DNA of 64,000 bases, from the NCBI GenBank assembly GCA_047602405.1, contig JASGHJ010000002.1, positions 448,001-512,000 on the forward strand, read 5' to 3'. A program made the translations under genes and the position numbers. Shown here in pieces: positions 52,533 through 64,000 of the stretch. Below the pieces are notes generated by a model. The model saw only the letters and a list, made by a program, of their open reading frames with translations. It had not been told where the DNA came from and made no database searches. Origin of the DNA: Anaeromyxobacteraceae bacterium (GTDB lineage: Bacteria; Myxococcota; Myxococcia; Myxococcales; Anaeromyxobacteraceae). Position 1 is the stretch's first letter, and each line of letters opens with the position of its first letter.

Positions 52533-53624
52533 TCAGGCCCGGCGCGGGACGATGCGCACCGCGGGCGTCTTCACCGCCGCGGTGACCGGCCGGCCCGGGA
52601 CGAGCCCCATCCGATCCGCGCTCGCGCGCGTGACGAGCGCGACGAGCGTCACGCCGCAATCGAGCGTGAGGCGCACGAGCGGCCCCTCGTCGCGGCGGGC
52701 CGCGACGACGCCCGCGAGGGCGTTCCGCGCGCTGATGGCCGCGCCGATGTCGGGCAGGATGACCACGTCCTCGGCGCGCACGCAGGCGTAGGCCTCGTCG
52801 AACGCGCCGCCGGGGTCGACGCCGACGAGCTCGGCCTCCCCGGCGCGCACGACGAGCAGGCCCTCCTCGCGGCGGACCGCCCGCGCCGGCAGGACGTTCT
52901 CGGTGCCCACGACCCGCGCGACCTCGGCGTCCACCGGCGCCGAGAACACCTCGTGCACCGGGCCCACCTGCCGGACCGTGCCGTCGACGAGGACCACCAG
53001 CCGGTCGCCGAGCGCGAGCGCCTCGGCGCGGTCGTGCGTGACCACGACCGCGGGGACGCCCGAGGACTCGAGGAGGTGGCGGAGCTCGCCGCGGAGCGCC
53101 TCGCGCGACGGCGCGTCGAGCGCGGAGAGCGGCTCGTCGAGGAGGAGCAGCCGCGGCCGCGGCGCGAGCGCCCGGGCGAGGGCCACCCGCTGGCGCTGCC
53201 CGCCGGAGAGCTCGGCCGGACGGCGGTGCAGGAGCTCCTCGACGCCGAGCCGGCGGGCGAGCTCGGCGACCCGGGCCTCGCGCTCCGGGCGGGGGAGCCG
53301 GTGGAGCCCGTAGCCGACGTTCGCGGCCACGGTGAGGTGCGGGAAGAGCGCGTACTCCTGGAACAGGAAGCCGAGGCCGCGCCGCTGCGGCGACACGTGG
53401 ACGCGCCGGGCGGCGCTGTACCAGGTCTCGCCGGCGAAGGTGATCTCGCCCGCGTCCGGCCGGTCGAGCCCGGCGAGCGCGCGCAGCACCGTGGTCTTGC
53501 CCGAGCCGGAGGGGCCGAAGAGCACCGTGACCGGCGCGCGGTCGAGCGGCCAGCCCGCCTGGACGGCGATGGTCGGTCCGCGGTGGAACCGCCGGACGAC
53601 GTCGAGGGTCAGCGCTCGTTCCAC
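52533..53624 (-). CDS. modC: Molybdate ABC transporter ATPase with TOBE domain
   Basis: GPSGSGKT, LSGGQRQR, LLLDEP, VTHD, ISARN; GTG start inferred. Confidence 0.92.
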   Translation of the reverse strand: MERALTLDVVRRFHRGPTIAVQAGWPLDRAPVTVLFGPSGSGKTTVLRALAGLDRPDAGEITFAGETWYSAARRVHVSPQRRGLGFLFQEYALFPHLTVAANVGYGLHRLPRPEREARVAELARRLGVEELLHRRPAELSGGQRQRVALARALAPRPRLLLLDEPLSALDAPSREALRGELRHLLESSGVPAVVVTHDRAEALALGDRLVVLVDGTVRQVGPVHEVFSAPVDAEVARVVGTENVLPARAVRREEGLLVVRAGEAELVGVDPGGAFDEAYACVRAEDVVILPDIGAAISARNALAGVVAARRDEGPLVRLTLDCGVTLVALVTRASADRMGLVPGRPVTAAVKTPAVRIVPRRA

Positions 53625-54283
53625 CGGAAGAAGGGGCGCCGCTGCAGGGCGTAGACGAGGGAGAGGACCGCGAACGAGACGACCAGGAGCAGGCCGGCGG
53701 TGAGGTGGGCGGCGCGGTATTCGAGCGCCTCCACGTGGTCGAAGATCGCGACCGACATCGTGCGGGTCTTGCCCGGGATGTTGCCGCCGACCATGAGCAC
53801 CACCCCGAACTCGCCGAGGGTGTGCGCGAAGGTCAGGACCGCGCCGGCGAGCACGCCGGGCCAGGCGAGCGGGAGCGTGACCTTCAGGAAGGTGCGCAGG
53901 CGCGAGACGCCGAGCGTGTGCGAGGCCTCGATGAGCCGGCGGTCGACCCCGGCGAGCGCGGCCGCGAAGGGCTGCACCGCGAAGGGGAGGGAGTAGAGGA
54001 TGGAGGCGAGGAGCAGCCCCTCGAACGAGAACGGGAACGGGTGCCCCGCGGCGGCCTCGAAGAGCCTCCCGGGCGCGCTCCGCGGCCCGAGCGCGGTGAG
54101 GAGGTAGAACCCGAGCACGGTCGGCGGCAGCACGAGCGGCAGCGCCACCACCGCCTCCACGAGGAACTTCCCCCGGAAGCGGCTCGTCGTCAGCCACCAC
54201 GCGACGGGCAGGCCCACGACGAGGAGGACGAGGGTCGTGAGGGCGGAGAGCCGGGCCGAGAGTGCGATCGCCGCCGTGTCCAT
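53609..54283 (-). CDS. modB: Molybdate ABC transporter permease
   Basis: LPLVLPPTVLGFYLL, FAHTLGEFGVVLMVGGNIPG. Confidence 0.95.
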   Translation of the reverse strand: MDTAAIALSARLSALTTLVLLVVGLPVAWWLTTSRFRGKFLVEAVVALPLVLPPTVLGFYLLTALGPRSAPGRLFEAAAGHPFPFSFEGLLLASILYSLPFAVQPFAAALAGVDRRLIEASHTLGVSRLRTFLKVTLPLAWPGVLAGAVLTFAHTLGEFGVVLMVGGNIPGKTRTMSVAIFDHVEALEYRAAHLTAGLLLVVSFAVLSLVYALQRRPFFRWNER

Positions 54284-54289
54284 CGCGCG

Positions 54290-55063
54290 TTACGGCAGAC
54301 CATATCCGTACTTCGCCAGGATCGCGCGCCCCTTCTCGCCGGTGACGAAGGCGAGGAACGCGCGGGCGGCGGCGGGCTCCCGCGCCGCCGCGAGGACGAT
54401 CCCGGACTGCTCGATCCTCGGGTAGAGCGCCTCGGGGACGAAGATCGTCCGCCCGGCCTTCAGCTCCGGCGCGAAGGTGAGCGAGTACGGGAGGAAGGCG
54501 ACGTCGGCGGCGCCGGTGGTCGCGAACTGGGCGGCCTGGGCCACGCTCGCGCCGAGGACGAGCTTCTCCTTCACCGCGTCGTGCACGCCCGCCGAGCGGA
54601 AGGCCCACACGGTCGCGCGCCCGAAGGGCGCCACGGCCGGGTTGGCGATCGCGATCCGCTTCACCGAGGGGTCGGCGAGGCCCGCGAGCCCGGTCCTCAT
54701 GAAGTCGAGCTTCGAGCCGGGCGGCGTCCAGGCGACGAGCTTCCCGAACGCGTAGACCCGCTCGTCCGCGGCCACGGCGAGCCCGGCGGCGACGAGCTTC
54801 GCGGGGTACTCGCGGTCGGCGGAGAGGAGCACGTCGAAGGGCGCGCCGTTCTGGAGCTGGGCGAAGAAGGTGCCCGACGCGCCGAGGGTGAGGGCGAGCT
54901 CGACGCCGGGCTGCTCCGCCTCGAAGCCCTTCTTCAGCTCCTCCGCGGCGGTCTTGAGGTTCGCCGCGGCGGCCACCGTGAGCGTGCTCCGGGGCCCGGC
55001 GGCGCGCGCGGCGGGGGTGAGGGCGAGCGCGGCGAGGAGGGCGAGCAGCGGGAGGCGAAGCAT
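54290..55063 (-). CDS. modA: Molybdate-binding protein
   Basis: Signal peptide, AAAANL, GASG, GAPFDVLLSA, IANPAVAPFG. Confidence 0.93.
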   Translation of the reverse strand: MLRLPLLALLAALALTPAARAAGPRSTLTVAAAANLKTAAEELKKGFEAEQPGVELALTLGASGTFFAQLQNGAPFDVLLSADREYPAKLVAAGLAVAADERVYAFGKLVAWTPPGSKLDFMRTGLAGLADPSVKRIAIANPAVAPFGRATVWAFRSAGVHDAVKEKLVLGASVAQAAQFATTGAADVAFLPYSLTFAPELKAGRTIFVPEALYPRIEQSGIVLAAAREPAAARAFLAFVTGEKGRAILAKYGYGLP

Positions 55064-55078: not shown

Positions 55079-55122
55079 ACGTTTAAGAAACAATTGGACA
55101 CGTTTAAGAAACAATTGGACAC
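55079..55122. repeat. Perfect 21-bp tandem direct repeat, probable operator
   Basis: ACGTTTAAGAAACAATTGGAC twice, AT-rich, between divergent modA and porin starts. Confidence 0.85.
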
Positions 55123-55175
55123 CTTGTACCCCACGCGGGTAGCGTCCGGCAACGTCGATCTCACCTGGAGGCCTC

Positions 55176-56237
55176 ATGCCGCTCTGCTCGCTCGCCGCCG
55201 CCCTGCTCCTCGCCCAGACGCCCGCGCCGTTCGCGGCGAAGGTGACGCCGTACGGCTTCATCAACTTCCAGTACTCCCGCCTCTACCCATCGCAGCCGAA
55301 GCCGGGCGTGAACACCTTCGAGTTCCGCCGCGCCCGCCTCGGCCTCAAGGGCGACGTCACGCCGAACGTGGCCTTCAACGTCGTCTACGACGGGGCGGAC
55401 AGCGCGCTGAAGGACGCCTGGATCACGCTCAAGGGCCTCCCGGGCGTCGAGGCCCGGCTCGGCCAGTTCAAGACGCCGTTCGGCCACGAGCAGCAGGAGT
55501 CCGACACGAAGCTCCTCTGGCTCAACAACTCGTACGTCGTCGCGGCGCTCGCGCGCGGGAAGGACTCGCGCGACGAGGGCGCCATCGTGAACGGGAAGTG
55601 GACGCTCGGGCCGGTGGCGGTGGACGCCGCGACGGCCTACGTGAACGGCGCCGGTCCGAACGCGAAGGACGATCTCGACGACAAGGGCGTGTGGGCCCGC
55701 GCGGGCGTCGCGACCACGGTCGCCGGCGTGACCCCCCGCCTCGGCGTCTCCTACGGGTACGGCCACCAGGTGGCCGCGCTCGGCGCCGACGCGAAGCTCG
55801 GCCTGCAGGGCACGGGCGCGACCGCGACGTTCGACGACACGACCTTCTACTTCCACGCGGCGGGCCTCGACCTCACGATCGACTCGCCGTGGTTCTTCGC
55901 CGTGTACGAGGCCGTCCAGTCTCGCCGCCACGTGACGAAGCACACGAACCCGACCACCCTCGCGGTCACCAACATCGTGCCGGAGGGCTGGTACGCCGGC
56001 GTCTACGGGAAGACCCCGTGGAACGCCGGGCCGGTGCTGCGCGTCGAGGAGGCCCGGCTCCCGACGGCCGCCGCGACGGCCGTGAACGCGCAGTACAACA
56101 GGCGCACGACCCTCGGCGCCTACTACGACGTCGCCCCGCTCAGCGCGCGCTTCGTCGCCAACTACGAGTGGGACCGGTCGCCGCCGGCCATCCGGACCGG
56201 CAACCGGCTCATCCTGCTGGCGCAGGTGCTGTACTGA
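55176..56237 (+). CDS. OprO/OprP-like anion-selective porin
   Basis: FEFRRARLGLKG, LKDAWI, RLGQFKTPFG; C-terminal QVLY. Confidence 0.8.
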   Translation: MPLCSLAAALLLAQTPAPFAAKVTPYGFINFQYSRLYPSQPKPGVNTFEFRRARLGLKGDVTPNVAFNVVYDGADSALKDAWITLKGLPGVEARLGQFKTPFGHEQQESDTKLLWLNNSYVVAALARGKDSRDEGAIVNGKWTLGPVAVDAATAYVNGAGPNAKDDLDDKGVWARAGVATTVAGVTPRLGVSYGYGHQVAALGADAKLGLQGTGATATFDDTTFYFHAAGLDLTIDSPWFFAVYEAVQSRRHVTKHTNPTTLAVTNIVPEGWYAGVYGKTPWNAGPVLRVEEARLPTAAATAVNAQYNRRTTLGAYYDVAPLSARFVANYEWDRSPPAIRTGNRLILLAQVLY

Positions 56238-56291
56238 GGGGGCGCCCGCGTCCCGCCCGAGGCCAGGGGGGTGAGGTATCCTGGCGGACGC

Positions 56292-57170
56292 ATGGCCGAT
56301 CAGCTCCTCACCACGGTCGAGATCGCGGCCGTCCTCCGGGTCCACCCGAAGCACGTCTACCGGCTCCTGAAGCAGGGGCTGCCGGCGCGCCGGGTGGGCT
56401 CGGAGTGGCGCTTCTCCCGCGCGGACGTGCTCGCCTGGTCCGGGGGCGCGCCCGGGGAGGCGGCGGAGGAGGCCGCCACGCCGGCGCCCGCCGCGGGCGT
56501 CGCCCCCGACGCGGCCCCGGCGCTCGTGGCAGCGAACGGCGACGTGGCGGTGCAGGTGCTGCTCCGGCTCGCGGCGGCGAAGGGGCCGCCGCTCATCGGC
56601 TTCCTGCAGTCGGACATGGGCACGGCGACCGAGCTGCTCCGGTGCCGCGCGGTGCTCGCGGCCGGCGCCCACGCCGGCGGCTTCCCCGGCCACGTGGGCG
56701 ACGAGCGCGTCGCGCGCATCCACCTCGTGATGCGCGAGGTCGGGCTCGTTCACCGGGAGAAGAAGCCGGTGCGGCTCGCCGAGCTCGGGAAGCGGAAGCT
56801 CGCCACGCGCCCCGCCTCGGCCGGCGTGCGCGGGTACCTCGAGGCCGCGCTCCGCGCGGAGAAGCTCGACCCGTCGAGGATCCAGAGGCACGCGCTCGTG
56901 CTCGAGTCGCACCTCGACGTCGCGCTCGCGGTCGCCTCCGGCCGCGCCGACGTCGGCGTCGCGAGCCGCGCCTGGGCCGAGCGCGCCGGGCTGTCGTTCC
57001 AGCCGCTCGCGACCGAGGCCTACGGCCTCATCGTGAAGGCCCGCGATCTCGGCGACCCCAGGGTGGTGCGGCTCTGCGAGATCGCCCAGGGCAAGGCGTT
57101 CCGCGCCGAGGCCGGCGCGATCCCGGGCTACGACCCGGCCGGCTCGGGCGACATCCGATACGACGCCTGA
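56292..57170 (+). CDS. Excisionase-type HTH + PBP-like (molybdate/tungstate) regulator
   Basis: LLTTVEIAAVLRVHPKHVYRL...WRF; SHLDVALAVASGRADVG...LSFQPLATEAY...GYD. Confidence 0.85.
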   Translation: MADQLLTTVEIAAVLRVHPKHVYRLLKQGLPARRVGSEWRFSRADVLAWSGGAPGEAAEEAATPAPAAGVAPDAAPALVAANGDVAVQVLLRLAAAKGPPLIGFLQSDMGTATELLRCRAVLAAGAHAGGFPGHVGDERVARIHLVMREVGLVHREKKPVRLAELGKRKLATRPASAGVRGYLEAALRAEKLDPSRIQRHALVLESHLDVALAVASGRADVGVASRAWAERAGLSFQPLATEAYGLIVKARDLGDPRVVRLCEIAQGKAFRAEAGAIPGYDPAGSGDIRYDA

Positions 57171-58042: not shown

Positions 58043-59044
58043 CTAGCCTCCGATGGCCGCGAGGTTGCGCACGTTGCCGGTGCGGCCCTCGGCGAGCGCG
58101 TGCGCCGGGGGCTTCGCGCCGACGGCCGCGCGGAGCGCCGTGACGAGCGCGCCCCGCTGGTCGTCCGCCGCGAGGAGCGGGCGGAGCGGGATCTCCCGGT
58201 CGGCGAAGAGGCAGAGCTTCAGGTTGCCGGTCGAGGAGACCCGCAGCCGGTTGCAGGAGGTGCAGAACCCGCGCGCGTAGGGCGCGATGAGCCCGATGCG
58301 CCCGCGGTGGCCGGGGTGGGCCCAGTCGGTCGAGGGGCCGCCGACGCCCTCCCGGGGCACCGGCCGGAACCCGCGGGCCTCGAGCCAGCCCTCCACCACC
58401 GAGGCGGGGAGGTGGTGCTGCTTGAAGAACGCCGCGTCGCCCGCCTGCATGAGCTCGATGAAGCGGATGGTGATGGGCACGTCGCGGGCCCACCCGAGGA
58501 ACCGCTCGAGCTCGCCCTCGTCGGTGGAGCGGAGCAGCACCGCGTTCACCTTGATGCGCGGGATGCCCGCCTCCAGCGCGGCCTCGACGCCGGCGATCAC
58601 CGGGTCGAGCCGGCCCACGCCGGTGAGCGCCGCGAACCGCTCCGGGTCGAGGCTGTCGACGCTGACGTTGAGGCAGGTGAGCCCGGCCGCGGCGAGCTCG
58701 CGCGCGATCGAGCGGAGGCGGTAGCCGTTCGTCGTCAGCCCCACGTGCTCCACGCCGGGCGCGCCGGCCGCGGCGGCGACGAGCTCGAGCACGTCGGGGC
58801 GCAGGGTGGGCTCGCCGCCGGTGAGGCGGACCTTCCGGAAGCCGAGCGTCGAGAACGCGGCGAGCAGGCGCCGCACCTCGGCGAGGGAGAGGGGCGCGTC
58901 GTCCGTGCCCTTCGGGCAGCCCTGGGGGAGGCAGTACGCGCAGCGGAAGTTGCAGCGCTCGGTGACGGAGAGGCGGAGGTACTCGAGCCGCCGCCCGAAC
59001 CCATCCACCAGCGGTGAACTGCTCGCCCCGTGCTCCTCGGCCAC
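58043..59044 (-). CDS. moaA: GTP 3',8-cyclase
   Basis: YLRLSVTERCNFRCAYC, RLTGGEP, RFIELM, FCTSCNRLR...LCLF, C-terminal IGG; GGAGG before GTG 59044. Confidence 0.96.
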   Translation of the reverse strand: MAEEHGASSSPLVDGFGRRLEYLRLSVTERCNFRCAYCLPQGCPKGTDDAPLSLAEVRRLLAAFSTLGFRKVRLTGGEPTLRPDVLELVAAAAGAPGVEHVGLTTNGYRLRSIARELAAAGLTCLNVSVDSLDPERFAALTGVGRLDPVIAGVEAALEAGIPRIKVNAVLLRSTDEGELERFLGWARDVPITIRFIELMQAGDAAFFKQHHLPASVVEGWLEARGFRPVPREGVGGPSTDWAHPGHRGRIGLIAPYARGFCTSCNRLRVSSTGNLKLCLFADREIPLRPLLAADDQRGALVTALRAAVGAKPPAHALAEGRTGNVRNLAAIGG

Positions 59045-59213
59045 GCGCGCCTCCCCCACCCGATGACGGCCCGCAGTCTAGTCCCCTCGGGCGAACCCGG
59101 CACCCGGTGAGATGCCCGGCCGGAGGCGGTGTTTCCACCGACTCGATGCCTGCGGCAGAACGCCCGGCCGCGGGAAAGCCCTGCCCCATGCGCGTTCTGG
59201 AGTACCGCCTCGG

Positions 59214-59229
59214 TGGCACGCCGGATGCT
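59214..59229 (+). promoter_or_regulatory. sigma54 promoter of the barrel-cytochrome-oxidoreductase operon
   Basis: TGGCACGCCGGATGCT, GG-N10-GC. Confidence 0.75.
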
Positions 59230-59323
59230 CAAAGGGGGCGGGCCGGGCAACACATCCGAGATGCAGGGGAACGCGCAGTGCGGGCTCCATGCGAAGCAAC
59301 CTGAAGAGAACCGAGGCGAACGA

Positions 59324-60562
59324 ATGCGGATCGACAGATTGGTCGCCCTCCTCGCCGCCGCCGCCCTCGCGCCCGCAGTGCGCGCAGGGGACGTGCAGGT
59401 GACGAGCTCGACCCAGTACCTCCGTTACGCCGATTTCCTCTCCGACAAGACCGACCAGCAGGACGTCGCCGAGTACCTCCGCCTGAGCGCGACGTTCGGC
59501 GACCAGAAGAACGTGACCGTGGCCGGCTACGGCCGGATCGTGGGCACGCTCACGACGAGCTTCGAGAGCGACAGCCGCAACGAGCTCGCGAACGACGTCA
59601 CCGGCCGGCTCTACTACCTCTACCTCGACTACCGCGACGCCGTGCCGGGGCTCGTCGACCTGCGCGCCGGCCGCACCTTCGTCGGGACGAACGCGCTCCC
59701 GGCGGTGGTGGACGGCGGGCAGCTCCGGCTCAAGAACGCCGGCGTGAAGGGGCTGAGCCTCACCGGGTTCGGCGGCCGCCGCGTCTGGTTCGACAACAAG
59801 AGCGAGCTGCCCTACGACGGCGACTGGATCTGGGGCGCCGGCGCGGCGTTCGACACGGTCGCCATGACCCACGTCGAGGCCTCCTACGGGCGCGAGTACC
59901 ACGCGTCCGAGGTCGCCCGCGACGAGGTGGCCCTCGACGTCGAGACGACGCCGTTCGCCTACGTCAGCGTGTTCGGCCGCGGCAAGGTCGACCTCGTCAC
60001 CTCGAAGGCGAACGAGCTGTCGCTCGGCGCGAAGGTCGCGCCGCTCGCCGGCCTCGTCCTGCGGGCCGAGCTCTACCAGAGCCGCCCGACCTTCGAGCGC
60101 AGCAGCTTCTACCGGTACTTCGAGGTCGAGAACTACCAGCAGGCCTCGCTGGCCGCGGAGTACCGCGTCCTCCCGTGGCTGCGCCTCGACGCGAGCTACG
60201 CGTACGAGCGCTTCGACAAGGACGAGAGCGCCAACGTCTACGAGGCGGGCGTGAAGGCGAAGCCGCTCGCGAACCTCTTCGTGAACGCGAGCTACGAGGG
60301 GCGCCAGGGCTACGCCGGCAAGCTCGGCGGCCTGCGCGCCAGCGCGGGCTACACGTTCTGGAAGGCGACCGTGCTCGCGGGCGCCGACTACGACGACTTC
60401 AAGCGCCAGGCGAGCCGCGACGGCTCCTCGAAGAAGTTCTGGGCGGGCGCCGACGTCGAGATCACGAAGACGGTCAGGGGCGTGCTGCGCCTCGAGCGCG
60501 ACACGAACTACCTGTACGACGCCGCCTACCAGGGCTTCGTCGCCGTCGACGTCCACCTCTAG
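59324..60562 (+). CDS. Outer-membrane beta-barrel (porin-cytochrome type)
   Basis: Signal peptide, RLYYLYLDY...LRAGR, many aromatic amphipathic strands; precedes a multiheme cytochrome. Confidence 0.75.
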   Translation: MRIDRLVALLAAAALAPAVRAGDVQVTSSTQYLRYADFLSDKTDQQDVAEYLRLSATFGDQKNVTVAGYGRIVGTLTTSFESDSRNELANDVTGRLYYLYLDYRDAVPGLVDLRAGRTFVGTNALPAVVDGGQLRLKNAGVKGLSLTGFGGRRVWFDNKSELPYDGDWIWGAGAAFDTVAMTHVEASYGREYHASEVARDEVALDVETTPFAYVSVFGRGKVDLVTSKANELSLGAKVAPLAGLVLRAELYQSRPTFERSSFYRYFEVENYQQASLAAEYRVLPWLRLDASYAYERFDKDESANVYEAGVKAKPLANLFVNASYEGRQGYAGKLGGLRASAGYTFWKATVLAGADYDDFKRQASRDGSSKKFWAGADVEITKTVRGVLRLERDTNYLYDAAYQGFVAVDVHL

Positions 60563-60580
60563 AGAGGACGGGGAGACACC

Positions 60581-61201
60581 ATGAAGACGCAGAGCATCCT
60601 CATCCTCGCGGCGGCGGCCCTCCTGGCCTCCGGCGGGGCCGCGCGCGCCGAGGAGCACCGGCAGTACGCCGACTCGAAGCCCGAGGAGTGCGCGGAGTGC
60701 CACCGGTCGTCCGGCGTGATGGAGAACCACGGCGCCGACTTCCTGAAGGACCACCGCCGCCTCGCGCAGAAGACCGGCAACAACTGCGAGCAGTGCCACC
60801 AGCAGTCCTGGTGCTCCGACTGCCACCACGGCGGCAACCTCACGCACCGCTTCGACAGCAGCCTGTCCCGGCGCGGCGAGCCGATGCCGGTCACGCACAA
60901 GGCCGACTTCGTCTCGACGCACGCGATGAAGGCCAAGGACGACCCGCAGTCCTGCGCGCGCTGCCACCGGACGCAGAGCTTCTGCTCCGACTGCCACCAG
61001 CGCGAGCTCTCCTGGAAGCGGTCGGAGATGTCGATCAAGAAGCACGCTCCCGTCTACGTGGGGGCCGGCGTGCTCGACCCGGCGTGGATCTCGCTGCACC
61101 GGGGCGACGCGCGGCGCGACCTCCAGTCGTGCCAGGCGTGCCACCCCTCGAAGTCGCAGTGCTCGAACTTCGCCTGCCACCCGGGGCTCGGTGGGCGGTA
61201 G
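60581..61201 (+). CDS. Periplasmic multiheme cytochrome c (6 CXXCH + 1 CX4CH)
   Basis: CAECH, CEQCH, CSDCH, CARCH, CSDCH, CQACH, CSNFACH; signal peptide. Confidence 0.9.
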   Translation: MKTQSILILAAAALLASGGAARAEEHRQYADSKPEECAECHRSSGVMENHGADFLKDHRRLAQKTGNNCEQCHQQSWCSDCHHGGNLTHRFDSSLSRRGEPMPVTHKADFVSTHAMKAKDDPQSCARCHRTQSFCSDCHQRELSWKRSEMSIKKHAPVYVGAGVLDPAWISLHRGDARRDLQSCQACHPSKSQCSNFACHPGLGGR

Positions 61202-61270
61202 CCGCAAGGAAACTTCAGGAATCTCGAGGAATCGAAGAAGCGAATCGGAGCCAGAGCAAGGAGAGGTCAA

Positions 61271-62092
61271 ATGGCAGGCAACAAGCTTCCAGTCGTCGCT
61301 GACACGATCGTCGAGCTCCCCGCGGAGCTGACGACGCTCGAGCAGGTCAAGGCGTTCATCCAGCAGACCATCGGTCGCCGCAGCTTCGTGAGCGGCATGG
61401 GCGTGGCCGGCCTGGGCGCGGTCGCGTTCCAGTTCGGGTGCGCGAGCGATCCCAAGGCCGCGACCCCGCGCCAGGTGTACGTGCCGAACGCGAAGGGCAT
61501 GATCGTCGCGGACCCCGGCCTGTGCGTCGGCTGCCGGCGCTGCGAGTCGGCGTGCTCGGCCTACAACGGCGGCACCGTCCGTCCGGCCGTGTCGAACGTC
61601 AAGGTGAACCGGAACGTCCAGTACGGCGTCGAGGGCACCTGGAACGGCGCGCGCGGGATGGGGCTCTACGGCAACTTCCGCATCGTCCAGGACACCTGCC
61701 GGCAGTGCCCGCACCCGGTGCCCTGCCAGCTCGCGTGCCCGAACGCGGCGATCGAGGTCGTGGGTGACCAGAACGCCCGCATCGTGAACACGGACAAGTG
61801 CGTCGGCTGCGGCATCTGCGTCGACGCGTGCCCGTGGGAGATGACGGCGCTCGACGGTCCGGTCAAGGGCGAGAACACCAAGTCGCACAAGTGCCATCTC
61901 TGCGCCGGTCAGCTCGGCCTGGACGACGGCGTGAACGGCCTCATGACGCGGCCCAACTGCGTCGAGGCGTGCCCCGCCGGCGCCCTGCAGTTCGTCCCCT
62001 GGGACGACCGCACCGACATCGTCCCGACGCGGCAGGTGGTCACGCCGAACTACGCGGCGGACGTCAAGGACACCTGCAAGCAGTGCCACTGA
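61271..62092 (+). CDS. YdhY/DmsB-like 4Fe-4S protein with Tat signal
   Basis: GRRSFVSG...FQFGC; CVGCRRCESAC, CRQC...CP, CVGCGICVDACP, KCHLC...CVEACP; terminal CKQCH. Confidence 0.88.
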   Translation: MAGNKLPVVADTIVELPAELTTLEQVKAFIQQTIGRRSFVSGMGVAGLGAVAFQFGCASDPKAATPRQVYVPNAKGMIVADPGLCVGCRRCESACSAYNGGTVRPAVSNVKVNRNVQYGVEGTWNGARGMGLYGNFRIVQDTCRQCPHPVPCQLACPNAAIEVVGDQNARIVNTDKCVGCGICVDACPWEMTALDGPVKGENTKSHKCHLCAGQLGLDDGVNGLMTRPNCVEACPAGALQFVPWDDRTDIVPTRQVVTPNYAADVKDTCKQCH

Positions 62093-62134
62093 CCCCTTTC
62101 GGATTCCGGAACCCTAGAAGAGAGGTAGAGGAAC

Positions 62135-64000
62135 ATGGCTGAGACCTACGGATGGGCAGGCAAGGTGCTGCGGGTCGACCTGACGACGAAGGCGATCACG
62201 GTCGAGAGCACCGAGAAGTACAAGGCGTTCATGGGCGGCACGGGCCTGGGCTGGAAGGTGATGTGGGACGAGGTCCCGCCCGGCACGAAGGCGTTCGACG
62301 CGGCCAACAAGGTGATCTTCGCCGTCGGCCCCGCGACGGGCTCCGGCTCGCCGTGCTCGGGCCGCACCTCGGTGTGCTCGCTGTGGCCGGTCAACGGTGA
62401 CGATCTGCCGGCCGCCGGTCACGTCGGCGGGCACTGGGGCCCGGAGCTCAAGTACGCCGGCTACGACGCGATCATCGTGCAGGGCGTCTCCGACAAGCCG
62501 GTGTGGCTCCGCATCGAGGACGACAAGGTCAGCCTCGAGGACGCCTCCGTGGTCTGGGGGCAGGGCATCTACCGGACCAACAACCACATCGTGAACCTGC
62601 TCGGGCCCGAGGCGCACGTCATGGCCATCGGCCAGGCCGGCGAGAACAAGAGCCGGCTGGGCGCCATCTTCACCGACCGCTCGCACCGCGCGGGCGGCGT
62701 GGGCGGCATCCTCGGCTCGAAGATGCTGAAGGCGATCGGCGTCCGCGGCACGGGCGCGGTGAAGATCGCGGCGTCGAAGGCCGAGTGGAAGAAGCTCAAC
62801 AACTACTACCTGAGCATGATGGGCGCGAACAACCAGTGCGTCGTCGCCCGCGAGCTGCAGGCGTGGTCGGAGTACTCGCCGGGCGGCACCCGCTGGTCGG
62901 GCCGTGACGGCGTGCTCTGGGGCTCCGCGCTCCCGCCGGTCAACACCGGCACCTGCCCGGACGCCGAGCACCCGACGGTGGACGCGCCGTACCCGCTCAA
63001 CAAGATCGGCCTCCGCACGCAGAAGGGCTTCAACGACTTCGGCGAGGAGGGCCTCAAGCGCACGGTCCGCATGGACGGCTGCCACTCGTGCCCGATCCGC
63101 TGCCACATCGCGGCGGACCACCCGGAGCTCGAGAACTACGGCGTCTCCCGGTACAACATGAACACGTGCATGGGGAACAGCGGCATCGTCTCCACGTACC
63201 CCAGCACCGCCGGGACGAACCCGCAGCAGAACCCGATGCTGCTCACCTACATGTCGAACCACCTCGAGGGTGACTACGGCATCTGGAACGACTACGGCGG
63301 CTGGAACTACGTGTTCAAGTGGATGTACACGCAGAAGGACACCGTCGCGACGATCCCCGACCCGGCGAACGCGGGCCAGACGATCGCCAACCCCTGGCTG
63401 AACAAGACGTACATGGAGAAGTACCTCTCCCAGGGTGACTTCCAGCCGGTCGACAAGACGACGGGCCTGCCGACGGCGAACACGAGCGAGTACTACCGGC
63501 TCCGCACGACGAAGATCTGGAACTCCGGCAAGAGCCCGTTCGACCTCCTCGACGGCGCGGACCCGCGCTGGCTGCAGTTCTACGCCGCCAGCGTGGCCGC
63601 CAACGTCGGTCCGACGTACTGGACCGCCGCGGACGGCGCCGCCCCGGCCGTGGTCGGCAAGTGCCGGACGGCCGGCACGATCGGATGGCTGATGGGCATG
63701 GGCCCGCCGAACATGGCGAAGCGCATCCCGGAGCTCGGGCCGGCGTTCGAGACCGACTACACGAACCTCCACATGTGGAAGCTCGGCCACACGCTCCACC
63801 ACTCGGTGGAGTCGATGGCGCAGGTCGGCGGGTTCGTGAACGTGTTCCAGGCGGTCCGCGACGCCAACGCGCACACGCACCACAACTTCTTCACGAACGG
63901 CCTCCCGAACTCGGCGGCCGTCCCGCTGAAGCGCGCCATCTCCCAGGAGATCGCCTGCTCGCCGTACTCGAAGTCGTTCTTCGCGGCGGGCGGCATGACC
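62135..64000 (+). CDS. AOR-family oxidoreductase, YdhV-like (runs off window end)
   Basis: Manual translation from ATG 62135: MAETYGWAGKVLRVDLT...GGTGLGWKVMWDEVPPGT...GGHWGPELKYAGYD...IGQAGEN...GSKMLKAI...GCHSCPIRC. Not in ORF track. Confidence 0.9.
   Translation, partial: MAETYGWAGKVLRVDLTTKAITVESTEKYKAFMGGTGLGWKVMWDEVPPGTKAFDAANKVIFAVGPATGSGSPCSGRTSVCSLWPVNGDDLPAAGHVGGHWGPELKYAGYDAIIVQGVSDKPVWLRIEDDKVSLEDASVVWGQGIYRTNNHIVNLLGPEAHVMAIGQAGENKSRLGAIFTDRSHRAGGVGGILGSKMLKAIGVRGTGAVKIAASKAEWKKLNNYYLSMMGANNQCVVARELQAWSEYSPGGTRWSGRDGVLWGSALPPVNTGTCPDAEHPTVDAPYPLNKIGLRTQKGFNDFGEEGLKRTVRMDGCHSCPIRCHIAADHPELENYGVSRYNMNTCMGNSGIVSTYPSTAGTNPQQNPMLLTYMSNHLEGDYGIWNDYGGWNYVFKWMYTQKDTVATIPDPANAGQTIANPWLNKTYMEKYLSQGDFQPVDKTTGLPTANTSEYYRLRTTKIWNSGKSPFDLLDGADPRWLQFYAASVAANVGPTYWTAADGAAPAVVGKCRTAGTIGWLMGMGPPNMAKRIPELGPAFETDYTNLHMWKLGHTLHHSVESMAQVGGFVNVFQAVRDANAHTHHNFFTNGLPNSAAVPLKRAISQEIACSPYSKSFFAAGGMT

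Follow-up and report, generated by a model that had tools for sequence, protein, structure and literature searches.

The 64,000-nucleotide (nt) stretch of Anaeromyxobacteraceae DNA analysed here (contig JASGHJ010000002.1, positions 448,001 to 512,000), which we call the window, runs out inside an operon of five genes coding for an outer-membrane beta-barrel of 412 amino acids (aa), a 206-aa multiheme cytochrome c, a 273-aa ferredoxin bearing a signal for twin-arginine translocation (Tat), an 825-aa pterin-dependent catalytic subunit of the AOR family (WorL) and a 296-aa YdhW-like protein (Table 1). The source genome is labelled G000 and the operon lies on its contig C2; C1 is another contig of that genome, and other G and L numbers denote further genomes and loci. 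The first four genes share one strand, with gaps of 18, 69 and 42 nt, and no plus-strand terminator-like site was found within the operon; a strong GC-rich inverted repeat with no T-run lies between worL and the ydhW-like gene (L001:9640-9671). The barrel gene is preceded by a sigma54-type motif, as are 37 of the 68 barrel genes with enough upstream DNA, the expectation from the source-genome background being 0.010 per 300 nt. Beyond the ydhW-like gene come a convergent sigma54 activator and then a sensor kinase with one CXXCH. Contig C1 holds a second complete five-gene copy (G000:C1:445194-451541), 55 to 65% identical, with a sigma54 motif and a regulator pair (convergent activator) of its own; pterin genes were not seen near it. 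In soil metatranscriptomes (two runs of one study, no silent control), 6 to 7% of the words were present and only short contigs mapped. The original prediction, made from the letters of the window, had described the promoter, barrel, cytochrome, ferredoxin and AOR-subunit features, all of which we recovered in place; reading on downstream, which it had recommended, extended the operon by the YdhW-like gene.

The barrel and the cytochrome are, on sequence evidence, relatives of Geobacter OmbB and OmaB. The AlphaFold2 model of the barrel (pLDDT 82) has 22 strands in the DSSP list, and the structural neighbours listed for it are membrane beta-barrels, mostly outer-membrane ones of 22 or 24 strands, at 8 to 14% identity; a fold search returned general barrels only (best Z 18.8, root mean square deviation 4.0, 358 aligned), and an ESM Atlas search only unnamed clusters. 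The barrel family alignment, built from 55 of 70 homologues, contains 36 invariant columns, of which 28 agree with OmbB of G. sulfurreducens (sequence in the supplement of PMC4282303) in a comparison made by eye and carrying no alignment score. The cytochrome is 39 to 51% identical to 8-heme cytochromes sitting between a barrel and an OmcB homologue, a comparison that leaves G. sulfurreducens OmaB itself outside. Three components define an OmbB-type complex: a barrel of 18 to 22 strands homologous to OmbB and an adjacent OmaB-type periplasmic multiheme cytochrome, both of which the operon has (the former as the 22-strand model and the column match), and an outer-membrane multiheme lipoprotein (OmcB/OmcC), which it lacks. 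Sequence searches of the PDB with the barrel, the cytochrome and the OmcB-like protein gave no relatives; the barrel had no match in Pfam or on plasmids, and in NCBIfam weak ones far under cut-off, and the DmsE-family profile did not match the 7-heme cytochrome. A complex prediction for barrel, cytochrome and ferredoxin (score 0.00, mark 0.32, controls not folded) is evidence neither way. Elsewhere on the same contig, at G000:C2:236266-238166, a 12-heme cytochrome and its barrel-like neighbour are similar to the porin-cytochrome clusters of two genes described for Anaeromyxobacter in PMC4245776 (here and below, statements from cited papers refer to the portions of them that were available).

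The gene that follows the pair differs between loci. A metagenome scan confirmed 145 stretches, of which the best 80 (79 loci) were kept and, together with four genome loci, gave 85 barrel genes; a genome-contig scan with a single protein gave 2 loci. A cytochrome gene comes next in 70 of the 85, and a contig edge in the other 15. Thirteen pairs stop ahead of a third gene, and in the 57 readable loci (counts that include near-duplicates) this gene codes for a ferredoxin in 34, with WorL seen in 28 and cut off in 6, for an OmcB/OmcC homologue in 17 (34 to 53% identity) and for something else in 6. The last group has a ferredoxin gene at most 10 kb away in four loci (WorL being seen in L020 and L125, and L019 and L059 ending inside the ferredoxin), a broken ferredoxin in one and a different cytochrome in one. 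A 12-heme lipoprotein after one pair shares, along its length, 53% identity with a protein named OmcB from G. sulfurreducens subsp. ethanolicus and 51% with OmcC; the OmcB query had no match in G000, G195 or G339. A barrel tree was built from 43 full-length barrels whose third gene is known, 8 of an initial 51 having been dropped at 95% identity or more. The 26 WOR-type and 12 OmcB-type barrels interleave in it, with at least three changes forced by the starred branches, and the WOR-type barrel of L044 nests in an OmcB group (support 99/96). Because the types interleave, the ferredoxin-WorL and OmcB modules have been exchanged more than once; the tree is unrooted and therefore leaves the direction of exchange undecided. 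On this gene evidence the conduit is modular, the same barrel and cytochrome accepting either OmcB or a pterin enzyme. This exchange of gene position with OmcB is our strongest evidence and, with the synteny, gives strong support to the link between a pterin oxidoreductase and an outer-membrane conduit that the original prediction proposed; the enzyme is very probably wired to an OmbB/OmaB conduit.

Some loci depart from the usual layout: in L059 (11980-13221), L125 and L138 the ferredoxin, WorL and YdhW-like genes lie upstream of the pair or apart from it, and in L059 the cytochrome is followed by a predicted lipoprotein whose repeats match a stretch of GlxA. Large predicted lipoproteins with 9 or 10 hemes are encoded just downstream of some operons (L024:15765-18179, L042:7403-9757 and L043:4757-7162, the last of the OmcA/MtrC family) and could be alternative conduit heads.

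The ferredoxin, WorL and the last gene have their best matches in the E. coli YdhY, YdhV and YdhW families, each under cut-off (137 bits against 213 for NF007382, YdhY; 597 against 868 for NF007354, the YdhV equivalog; 124 against 203 for the YdhW family profile). WorL has AFOR_N and AFOR_C domains (PF02730 and PF01314, both above cut-offs) and no hydrophobic stretch at its N-terminus, and is 33% identical to E. coli YdhV, with whose cluster cysteines its CxxCxxxC and distal Cys align. In a quick tree with no outgroup and no other WOR clades, for loci picked via the barrel, the barrel-linked WorLs form one branch (SH-aLRT 100), apart from the E. coli, Cetobacterium and Bacillota rows. Class V WORs are defined by an AFOR large subunit, an adjacent Tat Fe-S small subunit and at least one further subunit (PMC13328260); here a Tat Fe-S small subunit adjoins WorL and a YdhW-like gene follows. 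Judged by its protein families, the operon enzyme is a divergent class V-like WOR. With the class V (clade 41) enzymes, represented by E. coli YdhYVWXUT and Cetobacterium somerae WOR41 (PMC13328260, PMC9103625), it shares the order small subunit, large subunit, YdhW, the Tat signal on the small subunit, the signal-less large subunit and the unknown substrate; as of 2026, substrate and role are known for no class V WOR (PMC13328260). Co-export of a signal-less catalytic subunit through Tat, which the original prediction had brought in, is the pattern described for this class, where the large subunit travels with the signal-bearing small one (PMC13328260). The differences are that our WorLs are larger (721 to 902 aa against 686 to 705) and branch separately, that the small subunit has a heme tail, found in none of the E. 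coli, Proteus and Cetobacterium proteins, and that YdhX, YdhU and YdhT, the inner-membrane link of E. coli Ydh, are missing from the operon, which has the barrel and cytochrome instead. Since those inner-membrane genes are missing, the cytochrome is the sole electron partner that the operon encodes; a quinone module is absent from it.

The ferredoxin combines a twin-arginine motif, an FGC lipobox (Cys57), 16 cysteines in four cluster motifs and a terminal CKQCH. The RR, the GC and the terminal CXXCH are invariant in 23 of 23 aligned ferredoxins, and twin-arginine motif, GC lipobox and terminal CXXCH are all present in 27 of 27 full-length barrel-linked ones, collected with a pattern that demanded neither the lipobox Cys nor the heme tail. 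The lipobox +2 residue is G, A or S in all 27 and never Asp or Lys, and a Gly/Ser-rich stretch after the lipobox Cys is common to the ferredoxins and the OmcB homologues. His148 is also invariant and is a candidate distal ligand of the tail heme. In L083 a tandem ferredoxin copy without the Cys lies 5' of the barrel. The cytochromes differ according to their third gene: OmcB-linked ones have eight CXXCH in 17 of 17 cases, and among the 32 WOR-linked ones 28 stop after heme 7, having lost the eighth heme of OmaB. We take heme 8 to be the outer end of OmaB, by analogy with MtrA.

Our favoured reading, held tentatively, is a surface terminal reductase, a WOR docked in OmcB's place on the OmbB/OmaB pair. 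Surface location is likely because the enzyme genes occupy the slot of the conduit's surface cytochrome gene, and taking all the evidence together we judge surface exposure to be moderately probable; given exposure, the enzyme would quite probably be a reductase rather than an oxidase. WorL would take up bis-molybdopterin and a [4Fe-4S] cluster in the cytoplasm, perhaps aided by the signal-less YdhW-like protein, the metal probably being Mo because modABC adjoins and a Cetobacterium TupA query had no match in the source genome. It would then bind the ferredoxin and cross the inner membrane via Tat as a passenger, after which the ferredoxin would be lipidated at Cys57 and receive a heme at its terminal CXXCH. 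The ferredoxin-WorL pair would reach the surface, plausibly through type II secretion like DmsAB; GspD (above cut-off) and TatC are encoded in the source genome. There the tail heme would replace the lost eighth heme of OmaB, and electrons, drawn from quinol via periplasmic carriers encoded elsewhere, would pass from the cytochrome in the barrel through four Fe-S clusters to the pterin. We infer the export route, the docking side, the electron direction, the metal and the substrate.

The same synteny evidence would serve an enzyme that sits in OmcB's place and works the other way, oxidising an extracellular donor (aldehyde-like or another reduced compound) while electrons travel inward along the conduit and reach quinones and terminal reductases. 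Heme wires are reversible, and the solved relatives are mostly aldehyde:ferredoxin oxidoreductases. We consider such a surface oxidase rather improbable, as C. somerae WorL, partially purified and without its small subunit, was inactive on 46 aldehydes (PMC13328260), the characterised OmbB-OmaB-OmcB conduit runs outward (PMC4282303), and the oxidation of small aldehydes could take place in the periplasm, with no need of a conduit.

Relatives without the barrel put the ferredoxin motifs in perspective. In 401 Myxococcota genomes, four had a strong YdhV-like match and three of these a strong barrel match, so the system is patchy in this phylum. The fourth, G339, has the ferredoxin, WorL and YdhW-like genes without a barrel match, and its contig ends 326 nt from moaA, where G130 has the barrel; because of this break at the expected barrel position, we left it out as a barrel-free case. 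A YdhV-like gene was present in 19 of 401 genomes from the Bacillota (the phylum of G401), from which we read 22 distinct small subunits (WorS), a count that sets aside three reference rows, two rows for YdhX and a duplicate. A lipobox is absent from all 12 tail-bearing WorS whose N-terminus could be read, and in the representatives tail and His motif are mostly found together. Neither motif alone marks surface export, and only the combination of lipobox and tail tracked the barrel here. Two markers were rejected: the heme tail as a conduit-specific adaptor, given its frequency in Bacillota, and the lipobox alone as proof of outer-membrane location, since YdhY of E. coli and of Proteus has one too. 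A heme tail with no evident cytochrome partner is seen in many class V-like small subunits of the Bacillota (L144-L153, L159-L161, L163, L164, L167-L173), a type of which we found no mention in the available portion of PMC13328260.

Several of these observations weigh against a surface enzyme joined to the conduit by its tail. The heme tail occurs in 14 of the 22 Bacillota WorS, seven heme-tailed loci there show no multiheme neighbour, and a lipobox is found in 3 of 8 tail-less WorS; E. coli and Proteus YdhY have the lipobox and no tail. Neither the C-terminal CXXCH nor the HP(V)PC motif is therefore specific to the conduit, and the heme tail predates the link to the conduit. Replacement of heme 8 by the tail is not strict, because 4 of the 32 WOR-linked cytochromes still have all eight hemes. 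The M. xanthus lipoprotein export signal, Ala at +7 (PMC3222651), is present in our ferredoxin and in only 10 of the 27 homologues, and E. coli Ydh is predicted to be periplasmic (PMC4257093). In L059 and L125 the ferredoxin-WorL genes lie several kb from the barrel-cytochrome pair, and 34 open reading frames of the source genome have at least three CXXCH, so that other large multiheme proteins could cap the barrel instead. Finally, loci were gathered via the barrel, and the WorL branch without a barrel was checked in the 401 Myxococcota genomes only.

Taken furthest, the Bacillota tails without a conduit and the separated genes of L059 and L125, together with a 1.6-kb insertion that separates the genes in L019 and L020, would fit a pair and a WOR that share a sigma54 promoter and regulator and form no single complex, the heme tail serving a soluble periplasmic carrier. 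We regard mere co-regulation as very improbable: direct adjacency holds in 34 of the 57 readable loci and is kept after independent exchanges, the loss of heme 8 is confined to WOR-linked cytochromes, and no separated copy is farther than about 10 kb from the pair.

An enzyme wired to the conduit and facing the periplasm is a somewhat unlikely alternative, although a more serious one. The lipoprotein ferredoxin would then lie in the outer membrane's inner leaflet, or else in the inner membrane, and dock at the periplasmic end of the cytochrome, with electrons passing to or from outside acceptors directly or via surface cytochromes encoded elsewhere. Class V WORs are described as periplasmic (PMC13328260), the lipobox is shared with E. 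coli YdhY, Anaeromyxobacter has two-gene porin-cytochrome pairs without an outer partner (PMC4245776), and the source genome encodes several large multiheme proteins; a WorL-WorS pair of more than 110 kDa would also be a large cargo across the outer membrane. Against this arrangement, the module fills, more than once, the exact gene slot of the outer-membrane lipoprotein OmcB, and the cytochrome is cut to seven hemes in 28 of 32 cases, while the stand-alone Anaeromyxobacter pairs have longer, 12-heme cytochromes (PMC4245776).

Returning to the surface reductase, two known systems are close to it. The OmbB-OmaB-OmcB conduit of G. sulfurreducens (PMC4282303, PMC4245776) has a homologous barrel and periplasmic cytochrome, the same gene order and a lipoprotein in third place; here, however, that place is taken by a Tat-lipoprotein ferredoxin and a pterin enzyme rather than a 12-heme cytochrome, the cytochrome usually has seven hemes instead of eight, and the source genome has no OmcB match. 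The DmsEFAB dimethyl sulfoxide/iodate reductase of Shewanella oneidensis (PMC9048795) is likewise made of a periplasmic multiheme cytochrome, a barrel, an Fe-S subunit and a molybdopterin subunit, and type II secretion machinery is present in our source genome as in its host. Its DmsE is a decaheme protein and its barrel has 28 strands, compared with a 7-heme cytochrome and a 22-strand barrel here, which belong to the OmbB/OmaB type described as unrelated to Mtr proteins (PMC4245776). The catalytic subunit is of the AOR/WOR family here and of the DMSO reductase family there, and the Tat-lipoprotein signal is here on the ferredoxin, which also bears the heme motif. Surface location has been shown for DmsAB and is one that we infer for our enzyme. 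The operon is DmsEFAB-like in design, yet a member of neither DmsEFAB nor the three-part OmbB-OmaB-OmcB complex. The original prediction knew of no characterised example, which DmsEFAB contradicts, being a characterised conduit-wired surface molybdoenzyme (PMC9048795), although from different families.

We found no description of a barrel-cytochrome pair with a WOR in the searched literature, which leaves out most subscription journals; the word "porin" does not occur in the available text of PMC13328260, nor do "porin", "Geobacter" or "Anaeromyxobacter" in its 3 text supplements, and its class V gene-content figure is an image. The gene set is real and conserved, and apparently it is undescribed. 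The OmbB/OmaB conduit was previously known only with cytochrome heads, and we see about an even chance that this is the first cell-surface AOR/WOR-family enzyme, an interchangeable head replacing OmcB on the OmbB/OmaB wire with the ferredoxin heme as connector, which would point to a so far unrecognised substrate that anaerobes of soil and sediment respire outside the cell. For an enzyme on the surface, the substrate is probably one that stays outside, being particulate, toxic or bound to a polymer; fewer candidates then need to be considered, and whole-cell or electrode assays become possible in which a labile enzyme needs no purification. Cultured hosts may exist, because Anaeromyxobacter, Geobacter and Geomesophilobacter are among the named sources on record for WorL homologues, the gene context not having been seen for the last two.

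Table 1. Position of the operon and of its neighbouring genes (window numbering unless a contig is given)
Feature	Position	Strand	Evidence
modB	53609-54283	-	ORF (open reading frame) translation; ABC ATPase frame comes next
modA	54290-55063	-	TIGR01256 above cut-off
Porin_O_P-family anion porin, local neighbour only	55176..56237	+	Pfam domain
HTH + PBP-like putative molybdate-responsive regulator	56271..57170	+	HTH_17, PBP_like
Small hydrophobic protein, 135 aa, function unknown, behind moaA	57633..58040	-	near 5/17 WOR-type loci
moaA, divergent from operon	58043..59059	-	TIGR02666, 320 bits, above cut-off
Sigma54-type -24/-12 promoter motif	59214..59228	+	sequence; 111 nt 5' of barrel gene
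OmbB-family outer-membrane beta-barrel, 412 aa, signal peptide, predicted 22 strands	59324..60562	+	AlphaFold2 model, structural neighbours, OmbB column matches
OmaB-family periplasmic cytochrome c, 7 hemes (6 CXXCH + one CX4CH), ends after heme 7	60581..61201	+	motifs, identity to 8-heme relatives
YdhY/WorS-like ferredoxin, Tat signal + lipobox, C-terminal CXXCH, four predicted [4Fe-4S] clusters	61271..62092	+	NF007382, motifs
YdhV/WorL-like AOR-family catalytic subunit, 825 aa, signal-less	62135..64000, on to G000:C2:512612 (612 nt beyond window)	+	AFOR_N, AFOR_C
YdhW-like gene, 296 aa, 3' of worL, outside window	C2:512689-513579		profile search

The surroundings of the operon were compared in 17 WOR-type and 10 OmcB-type loci, each of at least 8 kb. 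The original prediction had moaA, modABC and an anion porin adjoining the operon and gave the enzyme its own metal supply. The genes are indeed present upstream, and moaA lies near 9 of the 17 WOR-type loci and none of the 10 OmcB-type loci; neither modA, near 2 of 17, nor the anion porin, near 3 of 17, is conserved in the neighbourhood. The metal supply holds in a loose sense only: 13 of 17 WOR-type loci and none of the 10 OmcB-type ones have some pterin or metal-uptake gene nearby, without modABC or the porin being a fixed part of it.

Just past the window, on the minus strand (L001:10585-13439), are the genes of the sensor kinase, with its CXXCH in the N-terminal sensor region, and of the NtrC-type activator. 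Nine of the 17 WOR-type loci and two of the 10 OmcB-type ones have the kinase sensor region close by, and the kinase is likely a heme-based redox sensor for the operon. An FKBP/SlyD-like isomerase gene follows at L001:13490-14257, with counterparts near six of the 17 WOR-type loci and none of the 10 OmcB-type ones; SlyD binds Tat signals. Farther along the contig, on the minus strand at G000:C2:519572-526338, moeA is accompanied by an operon for formate dehydrogenase; a stop, which is probably a codon for selenocysteine, divides the alpha subunit into two frames. A 21-nt direct repeat, visible as repeated peptides and a possible regulator site, lies at about 55080-55125 of the window, where modA and the anion-porin gene diverge.

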